64,000 bases of DNA from a virus (IMGVR_UViG_3300027586_000007:1-64000); one strand, 5' to 3'. Shown: positions 1,143 through 61,049, counted from the first letter of the stretch. Numbers and translations are program-made. Notes: generated by a model from the sequence alone, not told the origin.

Positions 1143-3740
1143 ATGTCAACAGTAAGAATTCAAGTAAGAAGAGGTACAGCCTCTGAATGGACCGCAGCAA
1201 ATCCAATATTAGCTGCAGGTGAAATGGGTGTTGAAACAAACACTAATTTATTTAAGTTTGGTAATGGAACAGCTACATGGACAGCCCTAGCATATGCCAA
1301 CAACTCAGATGTAGCAATTGGTGAAATTTCCCAGGATGCTATAAACACAGCCTTAACAATGGGCGCAGGACTAACAAAGACTTATAACGATGGAGCAAAT
1401 ACAATTACTATAACTGTTGATACAGATGTAGTTGCAACTAAAACATTTGCTACTTCAGAAGCAACAACCAAGGCTAGCGCAGCACAAGCAGCCGCAATCG
1501 CAGCAGCAGCAACTGACGCTACAACCAAGGCTAGCGCAGCACAAGCAGCCGCAATCGCAGCAGCAGCAACAGATGCTACTACAAAATCAGCGGCAGCAAG
1601 AGACGCAGCAGAAGATTACACAGATGCTGCAGTAAATACAGTAAGCAATTCTCTTTCAGGATACCTAGAAACAGGAGATAGAGGAACTGCTGGTGGAGTT
1701 GCTTCATTAGATTCAAATACTAAAATTTTACAATCAGAACTTCCTTTGAACTCTCTTACAACTGATATTTCAACAACTGGCGACATATTTGCCAACGACA
1801 TTGTTGTCAGCGGTAACCTTGCGGTTAATGGAACAATGACAACTATTAATACAGAAAACTTTGAAGTTCAAGATACACTTCTTTTAATGGCAAAAGGCAA
1901 TCAGTCTGGAATGTTAGACTTAGGCTTTGTTGTTGGACATAATACTGGAGTATTTAATCACACAGGATTTGTCCGTGACGCTTCAGAAGATAAGTGGAAG
2001 TTGTTTAAGGGCGTTACAGCACAGCCTACAACTACAGTTAACTTTACACAAGGATCATTAGACGCCATAGCAGTTGGAAGACTAGAATCAACAGAATCTG
2101 TTCTTAATAATCCAACATTAACTGGAACAGTAGTTCTTCCAAGCTCATCAATTATAGGTGAAAACATTGCAGTAAATGCTGTAGCATCATCTAAAATTAC
2201 AGATGGAGCTATTACAGAAGCAAAGGTTGCAGCAAATGCAATAACAGAAGGCAAAATAGCAGCTAACTCAGTAACTAATGCTAAGATTGCAAACGGAGCA
2301 ATTACATCAGACAAAATTGCAGCAAACTCAATTGCTCAATCACATTTAGGTGATGACTCAGTTGGAACAAATGAAATTAGTGGACTTGCTGTTACAACAG
2401 CGAAAATAGCCACATCCGCAGTAACCGCAGATAAGATTGCAACAGATGCTGTTACAACAGAAAAGATAGCCACATCTGCAGTAACTGCAGACGAGATTGC
2501 AGGTCTAGCTGTTACTTCAGCAAAGATTGCAGTAGATGCTGTTACAACAGAAAAGATAGCAACATCTGCAGTAACTACAGACGAGATTGCAGTTCTAGCT
2601 GTTACTTCAGCAAAGATTGCTGACGGAGCAGTTCTTGCAGCAAAGATTGCCGATTTAGCAGTAAATGGTACAAAGATTGCAGATGGCGCAGTTGATACAG
2701 CAAAGATTGTAGACGGCGCAATTACATCAGCTAAAATTACAAATGAAACAATTGTAAACGCAGACATTAGCCCTACAGCAGCAATTGCTCAAAGTAAAAT
2801 TGATGGACTAGGAGAATCTTTAACAGCGCTGGCCCCAATTGCATCTCCAACATTTACAGGCACAGTAGTTCTACCAAATACAACATCAATTGGAAATCTT
2901 TCTGCAACAGAACTTGGATACCTAGACGGAATTACATCTTCTGTGCAGACACAAATTGGTACAGCAGCAACAGCACTTTCAAATCACGAATCAGACACAA
3001 CCAATATTCACGGAATCGCAGATACTTCAGTACTTGCAACTGCTACAACAGTAGCAACTGCTAAGTCAGAAGCAATTGCAGCAGCAGCAACTGACGCTAC
3101 AACTAAGGCCAACGCAGCTCAAGCAGCAGCAGAAGCCACAGCAGCAGCAGCACTTTCAGGTGCAATTTCAACAGAGGTTTCAGGTCGTAACTCTGCAATT
3201 GCAACTGCTAAGTCAGAAGCTATTGCAGATGCAACAGCTCAGGTAAATGCAGTAATTGCAGCAGCCCCAGCAGCACTTAATACACTAGATGAACTTGCAG
3301 CAGCACTTGGTGATGACGCCAACTTTGCAGGAACTATAACATCTAGCGTTGCATTAAAAGCACCAATCGCTAGCCCAACATTTACTGGAACAGTAACAGT
3401 TGCAGCAGCAGGAATTGCGTTCTCAGATGGAACACAGACACGAGCTGGAGTTCCCTCTATCACAGAGTTTACTGGGCTTGCAGCTGGCGATGTGCTTCCA
3501 TTAAATTCACAAGATAAATTTGTAGCTTTAACTGGAGCTCAGCAAGTTACTCTTCCTGCAACAGGATATTCAATGGGACAATCAATTGATTTCTGGCAAC
3601 AGACTGGAACTGGCGCATCATTTGCTTCAACAAACGGCGTTGTAGGAACTCCAGGATTAAAGTTCAGAACAACAAATTCAGTTGTAACAGCATTAAAAAT
3701 TTCAAGCGGATGGTTGGTCTTCGGAGACCTTTCAGCGTAA
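1143..3740 (+). CDS. Tail fibre-like protein with Mtd_N-type N-terminal domain and AVTxxKIA repeats
   Basis: N-terminus IQVRRGTASEWTAANPILAAGEMGVETNTNLFKFGNGTATWTALAY matches the major tropism determinant N-terminal motif; 10-aa repeats; APIASPTFTG fibre motifs. Confidence 0.75.
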   Translation: MSTVRIQVRRGTASEWTAANPILAAGEMGVETNTNLFKFGNGTATWTALAYANNSDVAIGEISQDAINTALTMGAGLTKTYNDGANTITITVDTDVVATKTFATSEATTKASAAQAAAIAAAATDATTKASAAQAAAIAAAATDATTKSAAARDAAEDYTDAAVNTVSNSLSGYLETGDRGTAGGVASLDSNTKILQSELPLNSLTTDISTTGDIFANDIVVSGNLAVNGTMTTINTENFEVQDTLLLMAKGNQSGMLDLGFVVGHNTGVFNHTGFVRDASEDKWKLFKGVTAQPTTTVNFTQGSLDAIAVGRLESTESVLNNPTLTGTVVLPSSSIIGENIAVNAVASSKITDGAITEAKVAANAITEGKIAANSVTNAKIANGAITSDKIAANSIAQSHLGDDSVGTNEISGLAVTTAKIATSAVTADKIATDAVTTEKIATSAVTADEIAGLAVTSAKIAVDAVTTEKIATSAVTTDEIAVLAVTSAKIADGAVLAAKIADLAVNGTKIADGAVDTAKIVDGAITSAKITNETIVNADISPTAAIAQSKIDGLGESLTALAPIASPTFTGTVVLPNTTSIGNLSATELGYLDGITSSVQTQIGTAATALSNHESDTTNIHGIADTSVLATATTVATAKSEAIAAAATDATTKANAAQAAAEATAAAALSGAISTEVSGRNSAIATAKSEAIADATAQVNAVIAAAPAALNTLDELAAALGDDANFAGTITSSVALKAPIASPTFTGTVTVAAAGIAFSDGTQTRAGVPSITEFTGLAAGDVLPLNSQDKFVALTGAQQVTLPATGYSMGQSIDFWQQTGTGASFASTNGVVGTPGLKFRTTNSVVTALKISSGWLVFGDLSA
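1464..1570 (+). repeat. 50-bp perfect direct repeat, 57-bp period (TTKASAAQAAAIAAAA)
   Basis: acaaccaaggctagcgcagcacaagcagccgcaatcgcagcagcagcaac at 1464-1513 and 1521-1570. Confidence 0.9.
2180..2740 (+). repeat. Coding 30-nt/10-aa degenerate repeat (A-V/I-T-x-x-K-I-A-x-x)
   Basis: About 18 imperfect units, e.g. AVTTAKIATS AVTADKIATD AVTTEKIATS. Confidence 0.8.
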
Positions 3741-3761: not shown

Positions 3762-5138
3762 ATGTCAAAACAAGTAGGTAGAATGAGCCAGTCATCAAAT
3801 GACTTTTTAGCCCCTTATGCACCAACAATAGGAACAGCTACAAACGTTGGCACAAATCGCCCATATGGCAATGGTGCAGTTACAGTAACGTTTACACCTG
3901 AAGGGCCTTATGCCGCAACATCATTTACAGCATCTGGTTTTTGTAGCGTACACAATACTACTCACACAGCAACAGGATCATCTTCACCATTAACTATAAC
4001 TGGTTTTGGTGTAGGTGCAGTTACAACTATTACAGTAACAGCAACAAATGCAGAAGGAACATCAGCTCCATCTGCAGCATCTAATTCTGTGACAGTCACA
4101 ACAGTACCAGATGCGCCAAGTGCTGCATCTGCAACTGCAGGAGTTAATGCAAATACAGTCCAATGGACAGCTCCAAATAATGGTGGATCAGCAATAACAA
4201 ATTATTATGTAGCTGGAAACGATGGAACATCTGGTAATACAGCTTCTACATCAACATCTATTAATGATGCCGCCAATACTTCTCAGTATTATAACGTATA
4301 TGCAGACAATGCAAACGGAAGATCAGCTGCTTCTAATAACACTAATACCGTTACTACACAAGCACCGTTCTTCCCACCATTCTTCCCACCAGGGTTCTTT
4401 GCCCCACCGTTCTTCCCACCAAGCTTTTTCTCACCACCGTTCTTTCCACCAAGCTTCTTCTCACCACCGTTCTTTCCACCAAGCTTCTTCTCACCACCAT
4501 TCTTCCCACCAAGCTTCTTCTCACCACCATTCTTCCCACCAAGCTTCTTCTCACCACCGTTCTTCCCACCGTTCTTCCCACCGTTCTTCCCACCATTCTT
4601 CCCACCGTTCTTCCCACCATTCTTCCCACCGTTCTTCCCACCAGGGTTCTTTGCCCCACCAAGATTCGGTTGCATAAATGAAGACACTTTAATACTTACA
4701 TCTGAAGGCTATAAGATGGCTAAAGATATAAAAATTGGAGATATGCTAATAAGCTTGTCATTTGATAAATTGCCAAATGAAGGTGAGTACGACCCAGCAA
4801 CTTGGGAAGATACACATCTTGGTAACGCAAAAGTAATTGAGTCAAAGATATTCTCAATACAAGCTACATTGCAGAATGAAACATTTATGATTAACAATGA
4901 CGATACCGCAAGATTCTCTTTGCAAGAAGAAATTCTAGCACTCAGAGGAAATACTTATAAATTTGTTACCCCAGCGGGCATACAAATTGGAGATCAGATA
5001 GTTTACAGATCTGATGAAGAAATTAAGTATCTGGCAGTAGAGTCAGTCGATACAGTAGATGTAAGCTCTATAGTTTATAGATTCTTTACCGACCCAGACG
5101 TATTAGTCCTAGGACAATCGTTTATAATTAGAAACTAA
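3762..5138 (+). CDS. FN3-domain protein with PPFF/PPSFFS repeat and C-terminal Hint (intein/Hedgehog-like) domain
   Basis: Two FN3-like units (TVPDAPSAASAT...VQWTAPNNGGSAITNYYV), a ~100-aa Pro/Phe repeat, then G|CINEDTLILTSEGYKMAKDIKIGD...VYRFFTD...FIIRN-stop (Hint block A and terminal Asn). Confidence 0.8.
   Translation: MSKQVGRMSQSSNDFLAPYAPTIGTATNVGTNRPYGNGAVTVTFTPEGPYAATSFTASGFCSVHNTTHTATGSSSPLTITGFGVGAVTTITVTATNAEGTSAPSAASNSVTVTTVPDAPSAASATAGVNANTVQWTAPNNGGSAITNYYVAGNDGTSGNTASTSTSINDAANTSQYYNVYADNANGRSAASNNTNTVTTQAPFFPPFFPPGFFAPPFFPPSFFSPPFFPPSFFSPPFFPPSFFSPPFFPPSFFSPPFFPPSFFSPPFFPPFFPPFFPPFFPPFFPPFFPPFFPPGFFAPPRFGCINEDTLILTSEGYKMAKDIKIGDMLISLSFDKLPNEGEYDPATWEDTHLGNAKVIESKIFSIQATLQNETFMINNDDTARFSLQEEILALRGNTYKFVTPAGIQIGDQIVYRSDEEIKYLAVESVDTVDVSSIVYRFFTDPDVLVLGQSFIIRN
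4365..4667 (+). repeat. Tandem coding repeat: 5 x 30 bp (PPFFPPSFFS) + 7 x 12 bp (PPFF), flanked by PPGFFA units
   Basis: 30-bp units at 4404-4553 and 12-bp units at 4554-4637, counted from the sequence. Confidence 0.95.
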
Positions 5139-5159
5139 AAATAAGCGTATAATAAGAGA

Positions 5160-5186
5160 GGGAGCAGTCAATCTGCTCCCTTTCTT
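5160..5186 (+). terminator. Rho-independent terminator
   Basis: GGGAGCAG-TCAAT-CTGCTCCC followed by TTTCTT. Confidence 0.85.
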
Positions 5187-5187
5187 A

Positions 5188-5217
5188 TTGACAATATGAA
5201 TTTTTAAATGCTATAAT
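5188..5217 (+). promoter_or_regulatory. Consensus sigma70/sigmaA promoter, leaderless
   Basis: TTGACA-N18-TATAAT with TG extension; ATG 7 nt downstream at 5225. Confidence 0.85.
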
Positions 5218-5224
5218 AAATATT

Positions 5225-5938
5225 ATGGATAACATAAATGATAAATATAAATTTTCTTCAAAAGAAGAGCTTTTCCCAGGCGTTTGGGTATATAGAAACG
5301 CAATTAAAAAAGAATTAAATGTTATTGAAAGACTTAATGAAATAGGCGAGTCAGCAATTAAAGACAACGATTCCAGATTTCTTTGGACCTTTGGATTTGT
5401 TGGCTATAGCGAAAAAAGGCCAGACTACAGAGACTGTGAAGATATTAAGGTTGGCGACATACCAAATCCTAGAACAGAAACAGAAAAACTAGTTTCTAGT
5501 TTGTGGCAAGATCTAAAAAAATCTCAAAATCCAGCAGTAGAAGATTATTGTGCAAAGCATAATGTAAAAATGAATTACTGGGAAGTTATGAACTGTATTC
5601 GTTATGGAGAAGGACAGCATTTTCAAGAACACGCAGACCATGGATTTTCTTACAGTGCCACAGTTTCTCTTGTAGCATATGTTAATGATGAGTACGAAGG
5701 CGGAAATTTATATTTTCCAAAAATAGGTCTTGATATTAAACCACAAGCTGGAGACCTATACATTTTCCCATCAACATATTTGTTTTCTCATAGAGCTATG
5801 CCAGTAAAATCTGGAATGAAATTTTCAATTGTTACAATGTTAGACTATAACGATCATCAGCACAGACAAGAATTTATGGAGATGAGATCAAAGTGGGTAG
5901 AGGAAGACGCTAAGACTGGCAAAAACCCCTATGCATAA
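5225..5938 (+). CDS. 2OG-Fe(II) oxygenase, prolyl-4-hydroxylase-like
   Basis: HAD...YVNDEYEGGNLYFP...HRAMPVKSGMKF: HxD...H facial triad and basic 2OG-binding residue. Confidence 0.85.
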   Translation: MDNINDKYKFSSKEELFPGVWVYRNAIKKELNVIERLNEIGESAIKDNDSRFLWTFGFVGYSEKRPDYRDCEDIKVGDIPNPRTETEKLVSSLWQDLKKSQNPAVEDYCAKHNVKMNYWEVMNCIRYGEGQHFQEHADHGFSYSATVSLVAYVNDEYEGGNLYFPKIGLDIKPQAGDLYIFPSTYLFSHRAMPVKSGMKFSIVTMLDYNDHQHRQEFMEMRSKWVEEDAKTGKNPYA

Positions 5939-6641
5939 CATAAAGGCTTGGGAGATAAGAGATGGTTACGGAATAGTAGAACCGCTTTCTATAAAAAGAA
6001 AATGGATGGATAATACTTGGGAAGCTCACGCATACAAGTGTTTTCCAGTAGGACTAACTAATCAGCTTGGCTGGTCAATATCATTCCCAGAGGATATAAG
6101 CTTTATTTGGGACGGAGTAAGCGATGCTAGCCCAGATCATGTTAAAATTTTATCTGGAGAAAAATATGCATATGCAGGTAGAGCTAACGGGACTATAAGT
6201 TTTAACACTGGGCTTATGTTTAAAACAGAAGATAATTTAAGCATGCTTTCTATGCCAGTCCCAAATTTATTTTTTGATGGCGCTGTACCATTTACAACAT
6301 TAATCAGCACTTCTTTTTTTAGGGGAGAAATCCCAGTGGCCTGGATGATTACTAAGCCAAATGAAATTCTAACAATAGAGGCTGGAACCCCAATAATAGC
6401 CATTCTACCAATTGATCTAGCATCCCTTCAAGGCTCTGAGATAAATTTTGAGTCAATGTCTACTATGCCAGCCAGCCAGTTTGATTCAGACAAATACTCT
6501 GAGATAATTTATGATTTAAATAGATCTGGGGTATGGTCAAATTTTTACAGAGATGCCGTAGACCATTTAAAAAATGCTATAGGCAAGCATCAGGTAAAGG
6601 CATTAAGGCTAGTTGTAAATAAAGAAAATAAAGACAAATAA
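5931..6641 (+). CDS. Hypothetical protein, DUF6065-like
   Basis: AYKCFPVGLTNQLGWSISFPEDISFIWDG resembles my recollection of the DUF6065 N-terminal motif; not searched. Confidence 0.55.
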   Translation: MHNIKAWEIRDGYGIVEPLSIKRKWMDNTWEAHAYKCFPVGLTNQLGWSISFPEDISFIWDGVSDASPDHVKILSGEKYAYAGRANGTISFNTGLMFKTEDNLSMLSMPVPNLFFDGAVPFTTLISTSFFRGEIPVAWMITKPNEILTIEAGTPIIAILPIDLASLQGSEINFESMSTMPASQFDSDKYSEIIYDLNRSGVWSNFYRDAVDHLKNAIGKHQVKALRLVVNKENKDK

Positions 6642-6659
6642 AGATTATAAACCACAATA

Positions 6660-6668
6660 TGGTAAAAT
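6660..6668 (+). promoter_or_regulatory. Extended -10 TGGTAAAAT
   Basis: Intergenic, upstream of the 6693 ORF. Confidence 0.45.
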
Positions 6669-6692
6669 TAATTACCAGGGGAAGAAGATAAA

Positions 6693-7367
6693 ATGAAACC
6701 GCAAAACGAATGGCATGACAACAGACCAGTATCTATTACACCCTCTGGTTTTTTTGGCAACTCCATAGACAACATTGTTGAAATAAGAGACTTTCTTTCA
6801 TTAGAAGAAAGAAAAAGATTGATGGACTTTGCCTTATCTAATAAAATTTGGGATGTAACTGAAACTCACGTTGATGAAGACGGACTAGTCTTGTATGATC
6901 ACAAAATTTGGGAAGATAGAGTATGTACAATGAACTCATTGCGAGCTTCAGATCCCAGCATACTAGAACTTATTTATAGCATGATTGACAGACTAAAGAT
7001 TGAAGTAGATAAATTTTTTGATGTTGACGCAAAAGAAACTGGTCCAGCAATTGTTAAGTGGCCAATAGGTGCAAGACAAGAGCCTCACGCAGATAAAGAA
7101 TTTCATTCTGGTCCAGAAAAGGGAAGACCAAATGATTTCCCGTGGTACGATTTAGCTGGCCTTTTTTATTTTAACGATGATTATGAAGGTGGAGAACTTT
7201 ATTTCCCACAACACGGAATTGAATTTCAGCCAGTAGCAGGAGCAGCATATTTTTTCCCAGGAGACATGAATTATACTCACGGGGTAAGGCCAGTAAAATC
7301 TGGCAACCGATTTACATCTCCATTCTTTTGGACGATATCTAAACATACAGGAGACAGACAACCATGA
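6693..7367 (+). CDS. 2OG-Fe(II) oxygenase, P4H-like
   Basis: HADKE...YFNDDYEGGELYFP...HGVRPVKSGNRF. Confidence 0.87.
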   Translation: MKPQNEWHDNRPVSITPSGFFGNSIDNIVEIRDFLSLEERKRLMDFALSNKIWDVTETHVDEDGLVLYDHKIWEDRVCTMNSLRASDPSILELIYSMIDRLKIEVDKFFDVDAKETGPAIVKWPIGARQEPHADKEFHSGPEKGRPNDFPWYDLAGLFYFNDDYEGGELYFPQHGIEFQPVAGAAYFFPGDMNYTHGVRPVKSGNRFTSPFFWTISKHTGDRQP

Positions 7368-8179
7368 GTAACTTAAATTATATAGAGATTTATCCAAATG
7401 TAGAAGTTTACAGAGATGTTCTTACTGATCCACAAAAAATGTACGAAGTAATGAAAGAGTCTGAAAGAACTTCAGAGGGCAAGCATTTTTTAAAGACATG
7501 GGATCCATGGGCACACTTTGGCACTTATACACAAAAAAAGAATCCAATGGAGATATCTGATGATCAGCAGTCAGATGAAATGTTTATTAAAGAAAAGAAT
7601 TTTGTAGAAGAGGTTGAGGCTGCCTATCATGCAGTTTTAATGGACTACGTAGAAAGACATAACATTAGTTTGCCAGATGGCTGGAGATTTAGCGGATGCT
7701 CATACTCAAAGTATAATCCACAAATTAACACTTTAGATAACAAAATGACAATGCAGTATCATACAGATCATATAACATCTCAAAAAGATATGCCTGGAGA
7801 CAAATTTTTTATAACTTGTACAATGTATATAAATGATGACTACGATGGTGGTGACATTGAATTTTTTGTAGACGGTAAGCTTATTAATCATAAGCCAGTT
7901 TCTGGAGATATTTTAGTTTTCCCATCTACAGAGCCATATTATCACGGAGTTAAAACTATTGAAAATAACGAGAAGTTCTTTGTAAGAAACTTTGTTATGA
8001 CACCATTTGATGGAACAAAAGAATGGTTAAACAACCAAAAGACTTATGGGGCATATAAGTGGGCTCAGATGGAAGCGGAAAGAATTAAGCACGAAGACCC
8101 AAGAAACATGAGATATTTGGAAAATGGTGTACCAACATTTTACGATGATCTTGCTAATATAAAGGGAGAAAATAAATAA
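7364..8179 (+). CDS. 2OG-Fe(II) oxygenase, P4H-like
   Basis: HTDH...YINDDYDGGDIEF...HGVKTIENNEKF; ATGA overlap with the upstream gene. Confidence 0.85.
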   Translation: MSNLNYIEIYPNVEVYRDVLTDPQKMYEVMKESERTSEGKHFLKTWDPWAHFGTYTQKKNPMEISDDQQSDEMFIKEKNFVEEVEAAYHAVLMDYVERHNISLPDGWRFSGCSYSKYNPQINTLDNKMTMQYHTDHITSQKDMPGDKFFITCTMYINDDYDGGDIEFFVDGKLINHKPVSGDILVFPSTEPYYHGVKTIENNEKFFVRNFVMTPFDGTKEWLNNQKTYGAYKWAQMEAERIKHEDPRNMRYLENGVPTFYDDLANIKGENK

Positions 8180-8928
8180 TGGAAAGAGACATGGTTGTAA
8201 CAAGACATAAATCAGATATAGTTGTATATGACAATTTCTTGACTCCAGAAGAGTGCGCTGCAATTATTAAAGTCCTAGACATAAAAATGCAAAAAGAAGA
8301 ATTGAAGTGGATGCCTATTTCTTTCTATGAATCATATTCATCTGGTATGCCAGAAGTCAATGATCCAGATACAATTGCTTGCGGATTGCCAGGAGATTTT
8401 TTTCAAGTACTAAGACAAAGAGTAATTGACGCAACAGCCGATATGGCTGGTAAAAATCCTGAGCAAATGTCACAAATTAGTTGGCACTCTCAGAGATGGG
8501 CACCTGGCGCATTTGCAAATATGCATTCAGATAACACAGATAATGAAGGCAACTCTGGTGCATTTACAAGAAGCAGATACGCAACATTTATTTACTTAAA
8601 TGATGACTTTGAAGATGGAGTTTTAAATTTTAAGCATGGGCTAACGATTGTTCCAAAGACTGGAAGCATGGCCACATTTGCTGGAGGATTTGAAAACACT
8701 CACGAAGTTACAACAGTAAAGAAAGCAATTCGATATACACTCGGATCTTTTTGGGATGACAGAGAAGAATCAGATTACCCACAAGAGGTAAGAGATAAGT
8801 GGGCAGAAGAGCTTGCTGAAGTAAGAGCGTATCAAAAGGTAGAGGCTACCGAGTGGGAAGATATTCGTAACCAAGGACTAAGAATTACTGCATCTGGAGA
8901 AAAATATTCAGCCAAGGAAGTAGAATAA
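8179..8928 (+). CDS. 2OG-Fe(II) oxygenase, P4H-like
   Basis: HSDN...YLNDDFEDGVLNF...HEVTTVKKAIRY. Confidence 0.85.
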   Translation: MERDMVVTRHKSDIVVYDNFLTPEECAAIIKVLDIKMQKEELKWMPISFYESYSSGMPEVNDPDTIACGLPGDFFQVLRQRVIDATADMAGKNPEQMSQISWHSQRWAPGAFANMHSDNTDNEGNSGAFTRSRYATFIYLNDDFEDGVLNFKHGLTIVPKTGSMATFAGGFENTHEVTTVKKAIRYTLGSFWDDREESDYPQEVRDKWAEELAEVRAYQKVEATEWEDIRNQGLRITASGEKYSAKEVE

Positions 8929-9578
8929 TGCAAAACAATATTGAGTTTAAACAATTTATAATGTTTGACCTTCAGGTTCTTGGACCACAAATTTGGTACT
9001 GGGAAAATGCATTAAGTTTTCCAGAAGAGCTAAAAGTATTTATTGACAAAATTGATGAAGAGCCACAGTCTTATTCTAGAATATCTAAATGGGAAAATTG
9101 GACAGCAAGCGATGACAAAGAATTAATTTACGGAAAAACAAAAAATATTAATAAATCTAAGTTAAAAGAATCTACTGGATCAGATATGGTAGATAAAAAA
9201 ACTTTGTATATAGCAAATAGCTTTCTAATGGCATTTGAAATGTGTACCGATAGATACCTAGAAGGACACAAGCTGGATAAAAGTAAATATAATTTAAATT
9301 TAGATAACACCACTATTAAGGCTTGGAATGAAGGACAGTCTATGGGTCCACATTTTGACGGACAAGATGGTAATGCAGATCTAGCATTTTCTTTGGTAGC
9401 ATATATAAACGACGACTACGAAGGCGGAGAAATTAGCTTTCCAAATCACAATGTTACCGTTAAGCCAAAAGCTGGAAGCATGATAATGTTTCCTTCGCAG
9501 GAGCCATATATTCATGAAGTAAAGCCAATTATTTCTGGCACCAGATATATGAGCCCCGCACACGTATATATTAAGTAG
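8928..9578 (+). CDS. 2OG-Fe(II) oxygenase, P4H-like
   Basis: HFDG...YINDDYEGGEISFP...HEVKPIISGTRY. Confidence 0.87.
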   Translation: MQNNIEFKQFIMFDLQVLGPQIWYWENALSFPEELKVFIDKIDEEPQSYSRISKWENWTASDDKELIYGKTKNINKSKLKESTGSDMVDKKTLYIANSFLMAFEMCTDRYLEGHKLDKSKYNLNLDNTTIKAWNEGQSMGPHFDGQDGNADLAFSLVAYINDDYEGGEISFPNHNVTVKPKAGSMIMFPSQEPYIHEVKPIISGTRYMSPAHVYIK

Positions 9579-9598: not shown

Positions 9599-10711
9599 AT
9601 GAGCACAGGAGTAAACGGCTGGAGATTTCCAGACTATACAGACACCCCAGACGTCCCTAGAGACCTTGGAAACCTTGGTGCTGACATTGCAACCTTCATT
9701 GCTGCTAATCCAGGCCCACAGGGCCCTTCAGGCACCTTAGCAATAGGTACAGTAACTACCGTTAGCGCAAGTACTCCAGCAGCAGTTACAAATGTTGGAA
9801 CCTCATCAGCAGCTATATTAAATCTAACTTTGCCTAGAGGAATTGATGGTATTATTGGCGGTCCAGGTCCTTCAAATGTATTGTCTATTGGAACTGTAGC
9901 ACAGGGCGGTACAGCATCAGCAACAATTACTGGAACCTCACCTACACAGACATTAAATTTAGTTTTGCCAGAAGGCCCACAAGGAATACAGGGTCCAGTT
10001 GGCCCGCAGGGTCCTACCACGCTTGCGGTTGGAACGACTACAACTGGTGCAGCTGGAACAAATGCTTCAGTTACAAACACTGGCACAAGTACAGCAGCAG
10101 TTTTTGCATTTACAATTCCAAGAGGAGCAACTGGTGCCACAGGTGCCACTGGACCACAAGGAATTCCTGGATCAAGCGCAACTATAGATCCAGTGCCAAC
10201 AACAATAAGTTTAAACATACCAACCTCAACTGGGTTTGGCGTAAACTCTAACTGGTATCCTTTGGCAAATAACCTTTATAGTTTAGGGCAGCCAACAGAT
10301 ACACCAAATGGAGTTACATCAAACAGATTTTGGAAAACAATATACTCTAACACTGGAACTATCAATACGTCAGATCAAAGATTAAAAACTGAAATTGCAC
10401 CATCTCAGCTAGGCCTTAATTTTATAAATGAATTAAATCCAGTAAGCTATAAGTTTATTGAAGGCGGCAAAGAAATAGTAGACGGAGATATTGTTTCAAT
10501 TCCTGGATCAAGAACCCACTATGGACTTATTGCACAAGAAGTAAAAACAGCTTTAGATGAGTCTGGAGTTGCAGATTTTGCAGGCTGGGTAAAAATGGAT
10601 ATGTTAGAAGAAGACTCTATGCAGGGACTTAGATACGACCAATTTATTGCTCCATTAATTAAAGCAGTACAAGAGCTTACAGCGAGAGTTAAAGCACTAG
10701 AAGAGATCTAA
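9599..10711 (+). CDS. Tail fibre with collagen-like Gly-X-Y segments and C-terminal peptidase S74 chaperone domain
   Basis: GPQGPSG, GPQGIQGPVGPQGP, GATGATGATGPQGIPG; SDQRLKTEI...HYGLIAQEV...LRYDQFIAPLIKAVQEL (S74 motif). Confidence 0.8.
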   Translation: MSTGVNGWRFPDYTDTPDVPRDLGNLGADIATFIAANPGPQGPSGTLAIGTVTTVSASTPAAVTNVGTSSAAILNLTLPRGIDGIIGGPGPSNVLSIGTVAQGGTASATITGTSPTQTLNLVLPEGPQGIQGPVGPQGPTTLAVGTTTTGAAGTNASVTNTGTSTAAVFAFTIPRGATGATGATGPQGIPGSSATIDPVPTTISLNIPTSTGFGVNSNWYPLANNLYSLGQPTDTPNGVTSNRFWKTIYSNTGTINTSDQRLKTEIAPSQLGLNFINELNPVSYKFIEGGKEIVDGDIVSIPGSRTHYGLIAQEVKTALDESGVADFAGWVKMDMLEEDSMQGLRYDQFIAPLIKAVQELTARVKALEEI

Positions 10712-10714
10712 GAC

Positions 10715-12520
10715 ATGTCATACAAATACACTGTCTTAAAAGATAATCCACTTTCTTTTTTCTTATTAGATGAAGTCCGTTCTGGAACTGCTGGAGTATA
10801 CAGCAACCTAACAACACAATATGCCACATATGCTGATTTAAGAGATAATGGCGTTTCGTATGCAGCAATAAGTGGACTTCCAATAAAAGACTATTCTGGT
10901 AATGGTATGGAAGGATATGCAATAAATGCTTCTGCAATGGAAGTCTTGCCTATAATTGGGGCGGGAGTCAGAGGAACAGAAATTAATAATGACATAGACT
11001 TATCACTAAAAGCCCCAGGCATTGCTACATACAAGAACCCAGACAGCCCATTCTCATTTGAAATATGGTTTAGTCCAGACGTATCAGATAGCCAAGAGTA
11101 TTTAATTCTTGGAGACGCAACAAATAAAATAGGCCTATTTTATAAAAATGAAAATGTAATATTTAAATGTACAGAGCAAGAAACAGTATGGTACAAAGTA
11201 AGTAAAAATCAAGTAATGCATATAGTCGGTATATTTTCTAAAGACAAGATGTCTTTGTATATAAACGGATTACTGGTTTCTGAAAAAATTATCACAACAG
11301 CATTTAAATTTACAAATGAATTAATTACTATTAATATTGGTCCAGCAAATACTGGAAAGAGATTTGTAGTAGATTCGGCAGCAATCTATAATTATGAAAT
11401 TGAAGACACAAAGATTTTATCTCACTATTTGGTTGGCTATAAAGAAACTAAATATTCACAGATTGTTTATTCTAAAAACGGAACTTTATTTTCACTAAAC
11501 TCTGTATCCCTAAAGCCATCAGTATCTTACAGATATCCTGGACTTAAATCTTTAGACACTATAGTTTCAGGAGATGCATACTATAATCCAACCTATAAAA
11601 GAATAGAATTTGCCCAGACAGAATTAGTAGAAGAAAAAACTTTTGTATTTGAAGAAAGACTTTATGTGCCAAACCCAGAGAACATTGTTTCTTCTAGAAT
11701 ATCTTACGGGCAAGATGTAGATAACATTTTAATAGAGGTTAAAGTTCCAGGACAAGCCTGGGCGCCATGCAAAAACAATTCTGTCTTGCCATACTATAAC
11801 AAAAATGAAAACTTGTCTGGTCCAATATTAGACATACGAATTACAATGACCACACTCGACTCCTCTTTTGACCTACCCTACTTTGATAAATTAGAAATTG
11901 ATTTATATTCAGATAAAGATTTTTATTCTGATAATGGCGGAGGCAAAGTTTATTCCGACTATGATTATTCACTTGGATATTACAACTATCCAGTAAGAAT
12001 GCAAAATAAATACAATGGCCTATCTATGACTTCAGGACATGGATTCTCTGTAGATCTTCCAATACAGCCAAGAACCATTGAAATGTTTTTTACTCCAAGA
12101 GAAGGAAAGAATGTTTTGTTCTCATCGACTGCGGCCTCTTTTAGCTGGACTAATGCAGGAGCAATAACAAAGAGCGGAATTAGCGCAATATACGTTAATG
12201 GAATAAACAGGACATCTTCTACCAATGTATCCGACTTCTTTTTAAGCGGGGTATCCCATCACGTACTAATAGTCTTAAGCGCAATTGCCACAGGGATTAA
12301 GATGAACCAAAACCAGAGCGGTTCTGAATATGGTGGATCTAATATCTACAGCAATTTAGCATTTTATGAAACCCCATTTACTGCTCTAGAAGCCTTAAAG
12401 AATTATAAGCTATATTGTTCAGAAAATTCATTTACCGTGCAAGACCCAGGCATAACTTTCTCAGAAAGTGCTACTGGCCGAGACAACACAGCCTACTTCA
12501 CAAGATCTTTTGACGTATAG
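10715..12520 (+). CDS. Virion protein with LamG/concanavalin-A-like domains
   Basis: FSFEIWF...MHIVGIF...LYINGLL...DSAAIYNYE motif; YKYTVLKDNPLSFFLLDE N-terminus. Confidence 0.65.
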   Translation: MSYKYTVLKDNPLSFFLLDEVRSGTAGVYSNLTTQYATYADLRDNGVSYAAISGLPIKDYSGNGMEGYAINASAMEVLPIIGAGVRGTEINNDIDLSLKAPGIATYKNPDSPFSFEIWFSPDVSDSQEYLILGDATNKIGLFYKNENVIFKCTEQETVWYKVSKNQVMHIVGIFSKDKMSLYINGLLVSEKIITTAFKFTNELITINIGPANTGKRFVVDSAAIYNYEIEDTKILSHYLVGYKETKYSQIVYSKNGTLFSLNSVSLKPSVSYRYPGLKSLDTIVSGDAYYNPTYKRIEFAQTELVEEKTFVFEERLYVPNPENIVSSRISYGQDVDNILIEVKVPGQAWAPCKNNSVLPYYNKNENLSGPILDIRITMTTLDSSFDLPYFDKLEIDLYSDKDFYSDNGGGKVYSDYDYSLGYYNYPVRMQNKYNGLSMTSGHGFSVDLPIQPRTIEMFFTPREGKNVLFSSTAASFSWTNAGAITKSGISAIYVNGINRTSSTNVSDFFLSGVSHHVLIVLSAIATGIKMNQNQSGSEYGGSNIYSNLAFYETPFTALEALKNYKLYCSENSFTVQDPGITFSESATGRDNTAYFTRSFDV

Positions 12521-12601: not shown

Positions 12602-12940
12602 ATGGAAATCTTAAATCAAAAAAGTCAAATCATTGAAGAGACACGCCTAGGCATATACGTATGGGAAATGCCAGATGGCCGATGGATCGGTGATGATGAT
12701 GGCAATTTCCTTTCTATAACATCAACTAAAGGCAATAGATCAAAAATAGCTGCACTCGCAGATTCAGTTAGACACTATGGTATTTATGAGGGACAGCCGA
12801 AATTCCTTTCGGGTAGAAGAAAAATTGATGATGAAGAATTTGAACATCAGAACGAAAGACTTAAATGGGGACTTACTCCAGATACATTAGATATTGGAGA
12901 ATACAAAGATTCAATACTAAGAGGGGGAGCAGTAAAATGA
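12602..12940 (+). CDS. Conserved hypothetical protein upstream of portal
   Basis: 112 aa, GIYVWEMPDGRWIGDDDGNFLSI; ATGA overlap with portal. Confidence 0.7.
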   Translation: MEILNQKSQIIEETRLGIYVWEMPDGRWIGDDDGNFLSITSTKGNRSKIAALADSVRHYGIYEGQPKFLSGRRKIDDEEFEHQNERLKWGLTPDTLDIGEYKDSILRGGAVK

Positions 12941-14520
12941 CACAATTTTTAGAAGACGGACCAGAAGATACATACGAGGTATCTGTTAAAAATAGCTCAG
13001 ACCTATTCTCATTTAAGAAAGAGAAAGAACACGTAGACCCATTTGCTATTGGTATTGATGACCTTAAAAAAGTAAGAGGCCTAGGCACAAATTTTAAAAG
13101 AAAAGTAAATAGAGATTTTACAAAATCATTTACTGGTAAAGATGGATCAGGCACACAACAGAATCTATTGCAGTCAGCAGTTACTGGATATGCAATGTTC
13201 GACCTTGTTCAACCAGTATATAATCTAGAATACCTTTCTCAGATATATGAAGTTTCAACATACAACTATGCAGCCATTAATGCCAAGGTAGCAAATATTG
13301 TTGGTCTTGGATATTCCTTTATGGAAACAAGAAAGACAAACGATGCTATCGATGCAATAACAGATGACAAGCAATTAGATAGAGCACGTAGAAAGCTTAA
13401 TAAGTTAAAGCAGGATCTTCAAGATTGGCTAGATGCAACAAACCAAGAAGATACGTTTACTGAAACATTGATAAAGGTCTATACAGACCTAGAAGCAACT
13501 GGTAACGGCTACCTTGAAGTAGGTAGAACTACAGGCGGAGATATTGGATATATTGGGCATATCCCAGCAAAGACTATGCGTGTAAGAAGACTTAGAGATG
13601 GCTTTATGCAATTGCTTTATGGCAAGGCTGTATTCTTTAGAAACTTTGGAGATACAGAAACCGTTAATCCAATTGGTGATTCAGAAGATAGACCAAACGA
13701 AATAATTCATTTAAAGAAATATACCCCAATGAATAACTACTACGGCATTCCAGATATTGTAGCAGCCCAGATGTCACTTGCAGGAAACGAATTTGCTGGC
13801 AGATATAACCTAGATTATTTTGAAAATAAAGCGGTTCCAAGATATATCATCACAGTTAAGGGAGCAAAGCTTTCTCCAGAGTCAGAAAGAAAATTGCTTG
13901 AATTCTTCCAGGTTGGACTAAAAGGAAAGAACCACAGATCACTATATATCCCTCTACCAGCCGACACTCAAGACAATAAGGTTGAATTTAAAATGGAGCC
14001 AGTTGAAGCTGGTGCCCAAGAGTCCTCATTTAATATTTATAGACAATCAAATAGAGATGAAATTCTATTGGCACACAGAGTTCCAATTAATAAAATTGGT
14101 GTTCCAGAAGGTGTGTCCTTGGCAAATGCTAGAGACGCAGATAAAACATTTAAAGAGCAGGTTTGCCGACCAGCTCAAATGAGACTTGAAAAAAGAATTA
14201 ATTCAATAATTGAAGAAAAGACAGATGCATTAAAAATTAAATTTGAAGAGTTGACTTTAACTGACGAAGATACTCAGTCTCAAATAGACGAAAGATATTT
14301 AAGAATGCAGGTTATTACCCCTAATGAAGTTAGAATTAGAAAAGGAATGATTCCTGTTGATGGCGGAGATGAAATGGTTGAATTAAAGCCACAGCAAGCT
14401 GCTGACCAAAAAGCAACCGCTGGCAAAACTAGGGCAAGGGATTCAGAAAGATCTGCCGCATCTTCCGATAAGGTCGGAGAAGGCAGAAATGCAAAAGGTG
14501 ACGGAAAAAAGGTTGACTAA
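12937..14520 (+). CDS. Portal protein (HK97/PBSX-like)
   Basis: DLEATGNGYLEV...HIPAKTMRV...EIIHLKKYTPMNNYYGIPD...ILLAHRVP...ITPNEVR; start set at ATG 12937 after the GGGGGAG RBS. Confidence 0.88.
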   Translation: MTQFLEDGPEDTYEVSVKNSSDLFSFKKEKEHVDPFAIGIDDLKKVRGLGTNFKRKVNRDFTKSFTGKDGSGTQQNLLQSAVTGYAMFDLVQPVYNLEYLSQIYEVSTYNYAAINAKVANIVGLGYSFMETRKTNDAIDAITDDKQLDRARRKLNKLKQDLQDWLDATNQEDTFTETLIKVYTDLEATGNGYLEVGRTTGGDIGYIGHIPAKTMRVRRLRDGFMQLLYGKAVFFRNFGDTETVNPIGDSEDRPNEIIHLKKYTPMNNYYGIPDIVAAQMSLAGNEFAGRYNLDYFENKAVPRYIITVKGAKLSPESERKLLEFFQVGLKGKNHRSLYIPLPADTQDNKVEFKMEPVEAGAQESSFNIYRQSNRDEILLAHRVPINKIGVPEGVSLANARDADKTFKEQVCRPAQMRLEKRINSIIEEKTDALKIKFEELTLTDEDTQSQIDERYLRMQVITPNEVRIRKGMIPVDGGDEMVELKPQQAADQKATAGKTRARDSERSAASSDKVGEGRNAKGDGKKVD

Positions 14521-49562: not shown

Positions 49563-49876
49563 TGTCAGAAAGATCAGAAGTTAAAAGAGACGGAGCCAAA
49601 GCACAGAAAAACTCTGGGCGTGGGGACTATCAAAAGGGTGATGCCCAATGGAATAAATTTTTAGTAGACTACAAAGAAGCAGGATCATCGTTCACTTTAA
49701 ATAAAGACAACTGGGCAAAGATATGCACAGATACATTTAAGGTAAACAGAGATATGCATCCGCTGCTAAAAATAATAATTGGCAAAGATTCAAAGGTAAG
49801 GCTTGGTATAATAGAGTGGTCAGTGTTAGAAGAATTAATAGAATTTTGGGAGAAAAATTATGACTCAGTACAATAA
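49562..49876 (+). CDS. PD-(D/E)xK nuclease, Holliday-junction-resolvase-like
   Basis: MSERSE...NSGRG..QKGD...LVDYKE. Confidence 0.6.
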   Translation: MSERSEVKRDGAKAQKNSGRGDYQKGDAQWNKFLVDYKEAGSSFTLNKDNWAKICTDTFKVNRDMHPLLKIIIGKDSKVRLGIIEWSVLEELIEFWEKNYDSVQ

Positions 49877-50804
49877 AACAACAATAATGCCATTCGTAGT
49901 TTTGTATCGTGGTCTTTTTGATAATGCACCAGAAATACTGCAAATGCTAAAAGACTCAAATACATCAAGTATTCTTCAGGAATGGGAACCGTGGTATGAG
50001 CTAGGTCTAAGAACAAGGCTAGAGCCACACAGAGGAAACCCACTATCAGAAATTGAAAAGCATCAACTTAAATTACAAAAGTATATCTATACAAATTTAA
50101 TATCTGCCTATAAAGATTATGTAGAAGACTGGACTAAACCAGAAATTATTAAAAAGTATATCAATCCTAATAGATCTTTTTATGAAGATTGGAAATATGT
50201 ATTCGGAGAGTTTGTAACGGATTGGTCAGGATTTGATAATATACCTAACCAGTCAGATGAAGATTGCTGGATTAAGGGAGCAGTAGAAATATTAAAACAC
50301 GATCATACTGTTGGCAAAGGACTGGAACTTGCAATTGGATATCATCTAGATGCCTTTAACTCAAAGGATGCTGCTGGCCCAAAATCAATTATTACTGGAA
50401 CAGTGTATTTAAATGATGAATACGAAGGCGGAGAGATATCATTTTTAAATGAGTTTGACAGTAGTATTATTACATATAAGCCAAAACAAGGAGACCTTAT
50501 AGTATTCCCTTCAGCAAAACCATTTTTTCATGCTGCTCAAAAAGTTTATGGGGCAGATAAATATCTTATAAGAAACTTTTTATTGTGGCAACACTCAGGA
50601 TCAGATAGATACAAAGAGGGACAAAAAAAGTTTGGTAAAGAACAATGGGAGACAATGCAAGATCTTATTAGAGAAACTGAAGATCTTTTAGGGCTATACC
50701 AAAAAGATGTTTATCTGCCAGGTACTTCAGTTTATGATAGGCCACATGGAAACGGAATACCGTTTTTCCCTAAAACAGTAGAAGTTTGGGAAGATAATAA
50801 GTGA
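49860..50804 (+). CDS. 2OG-Fe(II) oxygenase, P4H-like
   Basis: HLDA...YLNDEYEGGEISF...HAAQKVYGADKYLIRNF. Confidence 0.82.
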   Translation: MTQYNKTTIMPFVVLYRGLFDNAPEILQMLKDSNTSSILQEWEPWYELGLRTRLEPHRGNPLSEIEKHQLKLQKYIYTNLISAYKDYVEDWTKPEIIKKYINPNRSFYEDWKYVFGEFVTDWSGFDNIPNQSDEDCWIKGAVEILKHDHTVGKGLELAIGYHLDAFNSKDAAGPKSIITGTVYLNDEYEGGEISFLNEFDSSIITYKPKQGDLIVFPSAKPFFHAAQKVYGADKYLIRNFLLWQHSGSDRYKEGQKKFGKEQWETMQDLIRETEDLLGLYQKDVYLPGTSVYDRPHGNGIPFFPKTVEVWEDNK

Positions 50805-60461: not shown

Positions 60462-61049
60462 TTAAAATAGTTTGTTGTTTATTGCAAAGCACGGCACAGT
60501 GTATTTGTCGTCATTAAATATTTGAGTAACTTCATGCTCATATTCTTCTGAGCCAGGGTGACAAAGCAAAGAATTCTGTTTTGGTTTCATTCTTATATTT
60601 TTATTAGGGTAGCAAACCTCACCGCCGTCGTAACTATCATTAATATAATAGTTTAAACCTAAAAATATTGCAGTGGTGTTAGAGTCTACGCCACCAGATT
60701 CATTAATAAATCCATAATCATCAGAATGTCTTCCGAATGATAGTTCGCTGTTGTTGTCAGATTCATTATATTTTTTAAATTTGGTGATAGACATTCTTTT
60801 ACCAATGCTATGAATGTCGTTGTTACAAAGGTCTTCTAATTTAAAGGTAAGTTCTTCCCAGGCTAAACGATACGATTCTTTTAATTCCAGGCCGTACATA
60901 TTAAAGGCCCCTCTATTTAAAAAGAAATCTTCCTTATATTCAAATTTATTATCATATTCCTTACACATATCTAAAAAAGAATTAAATGAGGCGTCAGATA
61001 GAAAATTGTCTATATAAAATATTTGATCGTCTAGATATATTTTTTCCAT
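60462..61049 (-). CDS. 2OG-Fe(II) oxygenase, P4H-like (only convincing minus-strand gene)
   Basis: HSDD...YINDSYDGGEVCYP...HEVTQIFNDDKY. Confidence 0.82.
   Translation of the reverse strand: MEKIYLDDQIFYIDNFLSDASFNSFLDMCKEYDNKFEYKEDFFLNRGAFNMYGLELKESYRLAWEELTFKLEDLCNNDIHSIGKRMSITKFKKYNESDNNSELSFGRHSDDYGFINESGGVDSNTTAIFLGLNYYINDSYDGGEVCYPNKNIRMKPKQNSLLCHPGSEEYEHEVTQIFNDDKYTVPCFAINNKLF

Follow-up and report, generated by a model that had tools for sequence, protein, structure and literature searches.

Pro/aromatic tract proteins paired with arrays of prolyl-hydroxylase-like oxygenases in uncultured lake phages: a candidate protein-tailoring island

We describe a gene island in a stretch of viral DNA of 64,000 nucleotides (IMGVR_UViG_3300027586_000007:1-64000, hereafter the window), which makes up the first 64 kb of a viral contig from IMG/VR (81.5 kb, estimated to be 76% complete). 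Within positions 3762-9578 a gene, P0001, whose product carries a long tract of proline and phenylalanine, is followed by an array of six genes: five encode 2-oxoglutarate (2OG)- and Fe(II)-dependent oxygenases, and one encodes a protein of the family DUF6065. Such tracts and such arrays occur together in related phages of two diverged lineages, and the enzymes resemble prolyl hydroxylases. On the basis of sequence and modelled structure we propose, with moderate confidence, that the array serves to tailor the phage's own fibre-module proteins at their Pro/aromatic tails. The features of the island are as follows.

3762-5138, + strand: P0001, 458 amino acids (aa), consisting of FN3 units, tract and Hint domain
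3762-4361, + strand: N-terminal part of P0001, two FN3-type units, residues 1-200 (Pfam fn3 and PDB matches)
4365-4655, + strand: Pro/Phe tract of 97 residues (about 202-298) in PPFF, PPSFFS and PPGFFA units, candidate substrate (translation, regular-expression scan)
4671-5138, + strand: degenerate Hint (bacterial intein-like) domain, from Cys304 to IIRN-stop (homologue profile)
5159-5181, + strand: 9-bp GC-rich hairpin followed by a T-rich run, TTTCTTATT, terminator- or attenuator-like
5188-5217, + strand: sigma-70-type promoter with a 12/12 match, TTGACA-18-TATAAT, extended TG
5225-9578, + strand: six-gene array (five oxygenases and DUF6065)
5225-5938, + strand: P0002, 2OG-Fe(II) oxygenase, H136 D138 H189 K199 (PF13640, E = 1e-13)
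5931-6641, + strand: P0003, DUF6065, predicted dUTPase-fold protein (PF19541, E = 2e-28, 99.7 bits against a cut-off of 26.6)
6693-7367, + strand: P0004, 2OG-Fe(II) oxygenase, H132 D134 H196 R206 (PF13640; the most conserved paralogue)
7364-8179, + strand: P0005, 2OG-Fe(II) oxygenase, H133 D135 H194 K204 (PF13640, E = 7e-8)
8179-8928, + strand: P0006, 2OG-Fe(II) oxygenase, H116 D118 H175 R185 (PF13640, E = 1e-7)
8928-9578, + strand: P0007, 2OG-Fe(II) oxygenase, H142 D144 H196 R206 (PF13640, E = 1e-11)

The evidence for a functional relationship begins with co-occurrence. A search with P0001 returned 80 viral loci, nearly all of which contain a gene for FN3 units and a tract, followed by orthologues of the six array genes. 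Since this search had used PPFFPPFF as one pattern, the test was repeated with DUF6065 as the anchor, whereby loci with at least 6 kb of upstream sequence were counted as informative. A tract gene on the same strand is found upstream in 31 of 31 informative loci of lineage 1 and, at a distance of 1.7-8 kb from DUF6065, in 35 of 35 informative loci of lineage 2, the loci being related and the counts hence non-independent. Lineage 2 (first seen as locus L176 in a search of genome collections, and sampled with 79 fetched loci) has a DUF6065 protein about 28% identical to that of lineage 1. Anchored on the tract instead, oxygenases are found at most 9 kb downstream in 47 of 48 and 17 of 19 loci; five further apparent exceptions that were checked comprise three loci with the array elsewhere on the contig and two fragments that are 26-31% complete. 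Apparent exceptions to the DUF6065-anchored counts consist of hexapeptide PPxFFx variants of the tract (PPGFFA, PPSFFG, PPLFFA) or of short open reading frames (ORFs). Taken over both searches, candidate exceptions other than L060 and L293 were rejected as detector misses or as cases with the array elsewhere on the contig. Control DNA, 550 kb in all, gave no tract. An earlier reading of the window (the initial annotation) had named the co-occurrence of tract genes with clusters of enzymes similar to prolyl 4-hydroxylase (P4H) as its own test, and the pairing holds in both lineages.

The most telling argument is qualitative: the carrier domain and the distance to the array change, yet the tract persists. 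The carriers overall include proteins with FN3 domains or a PASTA domain as well as fibres of 700-960 aa, and the distance from tract to array varies between 0.1 and 8 kb. In lineage 2, where the tract is strictly of the form (PP[F/Y/H]F)n, the carriers are a 128-aa PASTA-domain protein, other short proteins, and fibres of 700-725 aa. Because polymer and enzymes stay together in related fragments, the polymer is the likeliest substrate. We note that many relatives encode a second tract protein, namely a fibre (700-960 aa) with a Pro/Phe tract at its end, in some cases together with a Hint domain; this fibre is located several kb upstream of the FN3-tract gene, for example at L108:1-2112, L115:748-3129, L228:891-3770 and L294:2132-4324.

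P0001 had been described in the initial annotation as a virion-region protein with two FN3 units, a tract of Pro, Phe and Ser, and a terminal Hint domain, and each of these parts is recovered in its place. The Pfam fn3 model matches residues 118-196 (E = 7e-4, 20.2 bits, under the curated cut-off of 25), and residues 68-188 match the FN3 domains of titin and fibronectin in a phmmer search against the PDB (E = 9e-15). The tract is composed exclusively of P, F, S, G and A and holds about 24 PPFF-type units. A regular-expression scan of the window gave no second tract of that kind, and the window's own 865-aa fibre is without one. A DNA-level origin of the tract, as a polypyrimidine run, was considered and rejected: proline is encoded by CCA or CCG, and the peptide stays constant through changes at wobble positions. 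Its Phe codons are TTC in 88% of cases, compared to 19% in the remaining genome (81% TTT there). The wobble variation together with the TTC bias argues that selection acts on the protein; the preference for TTC may avoid long T runs or speed decoding.

The enzymes of the array appear prolyl-hydroxylase-like in sequence as well as in predicted fold. All five pass the PF13640 model (32-52 bits against a curated cut-off of 27), and the HxD motif, the distal His, and the basic residue (R or K) at +10 for the C5 carboxylate of 2OG are kept in every one of them; the five divergent HxD...H oxygenases of the P4H type reported initially are thus confirmed with intact active sites. The paralogues match one another weakly (E about 1e-7 to 1e-19). 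The best solved relative of P0002 by sequence is the P4H of Bacillus anthracis (E = 7e-6), and those of P0007 are a PKHD hydroxylase and the P4H of the chlorovirus PBCV-1 (E about 1e-3). P0004, whose residues H132, D134, H196 and R206 are invariant in 42 orthologues, is the oxygenase that was modelled for fold comparison. The AlphaFold (AF2) model based on these 42 orthologues (predicted local distance difference test, pLDDT, 93) forms a double-stranded beta-helix, and its top Foldseek match is vCPH of PBCV-1 (5c5t, E = 5e-11); further matches are P3H1, Bacillus P4H, PHD2, the algal CrP4H, human C-P4H-II and PiuC.

The sixth gene of the array, P0003, was listed last by the initial annotation and is in fact the second: the order is oxygenase, DUF6065, four oxygenases. 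The genes of P0002 and DUF6065 overlap by 8 nt, and the junctions of the array as a whole consist of overlaps or abutments of 8, 4, 1 and 1 nt and one gap of 51 nt. Judged from its AF2 model (48 orthologues, pLDDT 92), DUF6065 has a dUTPase-like fold. Foldseek assigns the model to the dUTPase/dCTP-deaminase fold (E = 3e-4), and with VIA, an independent all-against-all aligner, the top 23 chains all belong to the dUTPase superfamily (Z 5.6-10.7), followed by matches with a Z of at most 4. The residues invariant in the 48 orthologues include His33, Tyr35, Cys37 and His220; inspection of the consensus of these sequences by eye did not reveal dUTPase motifs I to V, and the position of motif V is occupied by helices.

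DUF6065 is tied to 2OG oxygenases by two independent linkages, a gene fusion and a gene adjacency. In Sphingomonas, Sphingosinicella and Allosphingosinicella, DUF6065 forms the N-terminal half of a fusion protein and a Cupin_8/JmjC 2OG oxygenase the C-terminal half. In the phages, 133 of 153 and 63 of 78 DUF6065 genes are preceded by an oxygenase gene that abuts or overlaps them. Fusion proteins of DUF6065 and Cupin_8/JmjC with a length of 570-660 aa were seen in L200, L207, L178 and L219, which are Sphingomonas-like genomes. Bacterial DUF6065 genes have no conserved neighbour (42 loci) and no phage-type oxygenases alongside. A literature search on 'DUF6065' found nothing.

After the tract, P0001 continues into a Hint domain. 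Searched by itself, the copy of the window gives no match to any Pfam Hint model; a profile built from 34 homologues recovers the bacterial intein-like (BIL) domain 2lwy (E = 1e-6) and several inteins, and 30 of the 34 match Pfam Intein_splicing. Cys304, the first residue of the domain, is the sole invariant column among the 34 sequences. Few copies are as degenerate as that of the window: block B reads SLQEE and is without the His of TxxH (the Ser is nearly invariant, the His is present in few relatives), and the domain ends with IIRN-stop, such that the penultimate His is replaced by Arg and no Cys, Ser or Thr is found at +1. The copies of many relatives finish with VVHN and three to four further residues, none of them a nucleophile. 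Since a C-extein nucleophile is lacking, cleavage is expected, not splicing. The domain resembles the Hint domains of BIL and Hedgehog proteins, which are likewise C-terminal, begin with an invariant Cys where the cargo ends, and have no C-extein nucleophile. It differs from them in that the window's copy has neither the block B His nor the penultimate His, and in that two thirds of the lineage-1 tract proteins, and all of those of lineage 2, are without such a domain.

In numbers, a Hint domain is present in 47 of 137 unique tract proteins of lineage 1 (34%) and in 0 of 43 of lineage 2, and the junction Cys is found in 45 of 50 Hint-bearing proteins. The tract forms the C-terminal tail in 43 of 43 unique proteins of lineage 2 and in 67 of 137 of lineage 1. 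Given this distribution, and the loss of both His residues in the window, the Hint domain is an optional accessory and not an integral part of the system. Of the Hint domain that was initially supposed to release or ligate an appendage, the presence stands and the integral role does not. The simplest reading is that self-removal of the Hint domain would leave a protein ended by the tract, as in the relatives that have none. An analogy is offered by Peptidase_S74 in the neighbouring fibre P0008, which likewise has a self-cleaving C-terminal end. In L150:6774-8159, L153:2270-3583 and L161:6400-7713, a Hint-like C-terminal domain begins with a residue other than Cys (SFWKSVGINTLLRTP); these domains may be inactivated caps.

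Between P0001 and the array lie the hairpin and the promoter, both of which the initial annotation had pointed out as a caveat to its own reading; both elements are confirmed. In most relatives, too, the tract gene is followed by a strong hairpin (-22 to -32 kcal/mol). The window has two perfect 12/12 promoter sites, of which this is one. A match of at least 10/12 is kept in 6 of 34 relatives, all of them close ones, and the perfect promoter was accordingly rejected as a general feature of the system. Contigs from lake metatranscriptomes match P0001 exactly and end at positions 5124-5144 in three runs of separate studies; the region of P0002 and P0003 is nearly uncovered, and pieces within the oxygenase genes are sparse. 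This points weakly to a transcript that ends, or is attenuated, after P0001, because contigs cannot rank expression and carry-over of DNA is possible.

A further group of genes is found in or beside the islands of relatives.

L159:8262-9269, L286:5129-6082 and L146:19488-20456: PF11397 glycosyltransferase (E = 1e-15 to 2e-26)
About 26 loci, including L106:567-1271: Sulfotransfer_2-like gene in or beside the island
About 32 loci: short-chain dehydrogenase
Most lineage-2 loci (L176, L336-L414): TauD-type dioxygenase, one to three per island
Most lineage-2 loci (L176, L336-L414): glutathione-peroxidase-like protein

None of these genes is present in the window. PF11397, which we take to be CAZy family GT60, is found in three to five relatives only; it has no match in the 81.5 kb contig, itself an estimated 76% complete, and the family also matched no control genome. 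GT60 holds Gnt1, the N-acetylglucosamine (GlcNAc) transferase that acts on a hydroxyproline of Skp1 (PMC6939170). Taken together, the accessory genes of the relatives fit a protein-tailoring island, and they support an extensin-like glycosylated product for a few relatives only. The extensin-like glycosylation of hydroxyproline that had been suggested for the window is thus not borne out there, and its alternative of Phe hydroxylation found no support. In lineage 2, a TauD gene is present in 17 of 17 unique loci whose tracts contain His (PPHF units), compared to 8 of 15 loci without His (Fisher p = 0.002 with relatedness ignored, hence a lead only).

Every gene between positions 1143 and 12520 is on the + strand, and the island is embedded in the following neighbourhood.

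1143-3740, + strand: tail-fibre gene, 865 aa (PHROG tail-fibre families, E = 2e-35; Pfam Mtd_N at residues 6-43)
9599-10711, + strand: P0008, fibre with short collagen-like stretches and a C-terminal Peptidase_S74 self-cleaving chaperone domain
10715-12520, + strand: 601-aa protein with a Laminin_G_3 (ConA-like lectin) domain, directly before the portal module
12865-14520: portal gene
Window 49860-50804 (+ strand) and 60462-61049 (- strand), contig 65585-65800, 72882-73124 and 81098-81490: extra PF13640 matches and a second DUF6065

The tail-fibre gene directly upstream of P0001 places the latter in the context of a fibre module. Its Mtd_N domain is the N-terminal domain of the major tropism determinant, and the same start is found in a 910-aa fibre of the second lineage (L176:1106-3838). 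The collagen-like fibre that the initial annotation reported after the array corresponds to P0008. The contig's portal protein has 55% identity to portals of the Streptomyces BE-cluster siphoviruses (Stanwilliamsviridae), and the order of portal, protease and capsid genes matches that of these phages. In Streptomyces phage Birchlyn the portal module is present without a preceding fibre or oxygenase block; the lectin-domain protein at 10715-12520 is in the same position as the hypothetical gp44 of Birchlyn. As to cultured relatives, megablast of the region against 50,697 phage records gave no match, tblastn of P0001 gave only a 28% match to the Hint domain in phage NCTB, and tblastn of P0003 gave none. 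DNA runs with this region come from at least eight lake or freshwater studies, and parts are also found in RNA libraries; the phage is widespread in lakes.

These observations are consistent with the following scheme. The island would constitute a phage-encoded protein-tailoring system, whose substrate would be fibre-module proteins, presumably located on the virion, with a genetically encoded Pro/aromatic polymer at the C-terminus; here the carrier would be the FN3-FN3 protein. The five distinct paralogues would hydroxylate prolines of the tract and may differ from one another in the positions or regiochemistries they serve. DUF6065, putatively coupled to the first oxygenase in translation, would act as a partner or adaptor of the oxygenases. 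Where a Hint cap is present, a thioester would form at Cys304 and the cap would remove itself, such that the mature protein ends in the tract. The hairpin after the tract gene may keep the transcripts of the enzymes lower than those of the substrate. A fuller version of the scheme, which we hold rather tentatively, is that fibre tails of the type (PP-aromatic-F)n are turned by position-specific hydroxylases into a polyhydroxylated polymer at the fibre tip, that some lineages add steps by GlcNAc transferase, sulfotransferase, TauD or a peroxidase-like protein, and that the optional Hint domain provides release or ligation by way of its thioester. Compared to the initial annotation, the co-occurrence and the P4H-like enzymes remain part of the interpretation, whereas an integral Hint domain, an extensin-like product and the hydroxylation of Phe do not.

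Several observations weigh against the proposed tailoring of the tract. All evidence consists of genomic association within one broad group of uncultured lake phages related to the Streptomyces BE-cluster, and shared descent can yield much of the co-occurrence. The hairpin and the perfect promoter separate P0001 from the enzyme array. Further members of the family PF13640 have EF-Tu or ribosomal proteins as substrates, and others, such as PiuC, have no assigned substrate; all of these are represented among the fold matches of P0004. The known substrates of P4H enzymes are of the X-Pro-Gly, Ser-Pro or PAPK type, unlike Pro-Pro-Phe-Phe. Four more PF13640 matches and a second DUF6065 (a copy cut by the contig end) are located elsewhere on the contig, none of them beside a Pro/Phe tract. 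Finally, the cyanophage Syn9 has an array with a dUTPase-fold protein, and its neighbouring genes gp32-gp40, gp43, gp44, gp46 and gp47 contain no Pro/aromatic tract, which indicates that such arrays can exist tract-free.

The comparison with Syn9 leads to the main rival explanation, namely that the array and the dUTPase-fold protein form a general phage module for a peptide-derived small molecule, or for the modification of a host protein or metabolite, and that the tract is adjacent because a variable fibre-proximal region is inherited together. We regard this as possible, if somewhat improbable. Syn9 encodes ten tandem dioxygenases and a dUTPase-fold protein with a conserved Cys, for which a synthesis of secondary metabolites was proposed (Iyer et al. 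2010, PMC2938197). The two arrays are alike in their tandem, distinct 2OG dioxygenases (gp41-gp54 in Syn9), in the dUTPase-fold protein with its conserved Cys (here Cys37), and in their location just after tail-fibre genes; Syn9, tract-free in the neighbouring proteins examined, also has in gp43 a weak match to the DUF6065 profile. Genomes of aquatic phages commonly encode several unexplained 2OG oxygenases (PMC3037559), and the extra oxygenase copies elsewhere in the genome, the perfect promoter of the array, and the EF-Tu-modifying P4H and PiuC among the fold neighbours of P0004 would all suit such a module. Unlike the array of Syn9, which has two Trp halogenases and a JmjC member, the genes at 5225-9578 include neither, nor is there a peptide synthetase among them, and the target proposed here is the phage's own protein rather than a secondary metabolite. 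What argues against a module aimed at small molecules or the host, besides the absence of a peptide synthetase and a halogenase, is the presence of the tract in 66 of 66 DUF6065-anchored loci of two lineages despite changing carriers and spacing; the polypeptide GlcNAc-transferase and sulfotransferase families among the accessory genes of relatives likewise suit the tailoring of a protein. A hydroxylation of co-encoded fibre-like proteins followed by sulfation was also proposed by Iyer et al. (PMC2938197), and the sulfotransferase and other accessory genes in relatives match this proposal.

The same authors suggested collagen-like or tail-collar proteins as co-encoded substrates of phage dioxygenases (PMC2938197), and it is conceivable that the enzymes hydroxylate other fibre proteins instead of the tract, in particular the collagen-like P0008, as Bacillus P4H does with collagen-like proteins. 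P0008 follows directly after the array and contains the stretches GPQGPS, GIPG and GATGAT, and collagen P4H, P3H1 and Bacillus P4H are among the fold neighbours of P0004. A P0008 homologue is, however, found beside the array in 14 of 21 lineage-1 and 1 of 24 lineage-2 loci, and a P0008 homologue or any ORF with at least six GXY triplets near the array in 14-15 of 21 and 1-2 of 24, compared to 100% for the tract; very few X-Pro-Gly sites are present in P0008 itself. We therefore consider this explanation unlikely, with P0008 as a possible secondary substrate. That the island modifies nucleotides or DNA, with the dUTPase-fold protein handling a nucleotide and the oxygenases oxidising the base, agrees with the match of the DUF6065 model to dUTPases and dCTP deaminases (Z 5.6-10.7) and is nevertheless very improbable, given the unrecognisable dUTPase motifs with helices in place of motif V, oxygenase fold neighbours that are protein prolyl hydroxylases and not AlkB or TET/JBP, and the bacterial fusions of DUF6065 to JmjC/Cupin_8.

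For the tailoring of the phage's own tract there are two instructive parallels. A085R of PBCV-1 (vCPH, 5c5t), the best structural match of P0004, is likewise a virus-encoded enzyme of the P4H type, and the PBCV-1 genome encodes Pro-rich tandem repeats of the PAPK type that are presumed substrates of its own P4H. PBCV-1 has one enzyme and an algal host, whereas the islands described here have five to eleven distinct paralogues with a predicted dUTPase-fold partner and a bacterial host, and the predicted substrate is of the PPFF type, hydrophobic and aromatic. In the Skp1 pathway (the P4H PhyA and the GT60 enzyme Gnt1) and in plant extensins, hydroxyproline made by a P4H subsequently receives a sugar, which is paralleled by the PF11397 glycosyltransferases in the islands of few relatives. 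The tract differs from both in having no Ser-Pro(n) motifs and in being a polymer substrate rather than a single Pro. Viral P4H enzymes with Pro-rich repeats (PBCV-1) and dioxygenase arrays with a dUTPase-fold protein (Syn9) are therefore already known. In the literature searched we found no Pro-Phe polymer or PPFF repeats in phages, no strict pairing of these with an array, no DUF6065-JmjC fusions and no optional Hint cap.

The 2OG oxygenases of aquatic phages have been noted since 2007-2010, with DNA repair, 2OG signalling and secondary metabolites as proposed roles (PMC3037559, PMC2938197). The system described here offers a concrete candidate substrate for such enzymes, namely an encoded Pro/aromatic polymer that travels with them. 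If the proposal is correct, bacteriophages would hydroxylate their own virion proteins, and DUF6065 as well as the bacterial JmjC fusions would gain a function. Poly(Pro-Pro-Phe-Phe) would be an unusual biopolymer without precedent in the literature searched, and the island would represent a new class of post-translational modification of the virion and would give the orphan oxygenase arrays of aquatic phages an assigned substrate for the first time.

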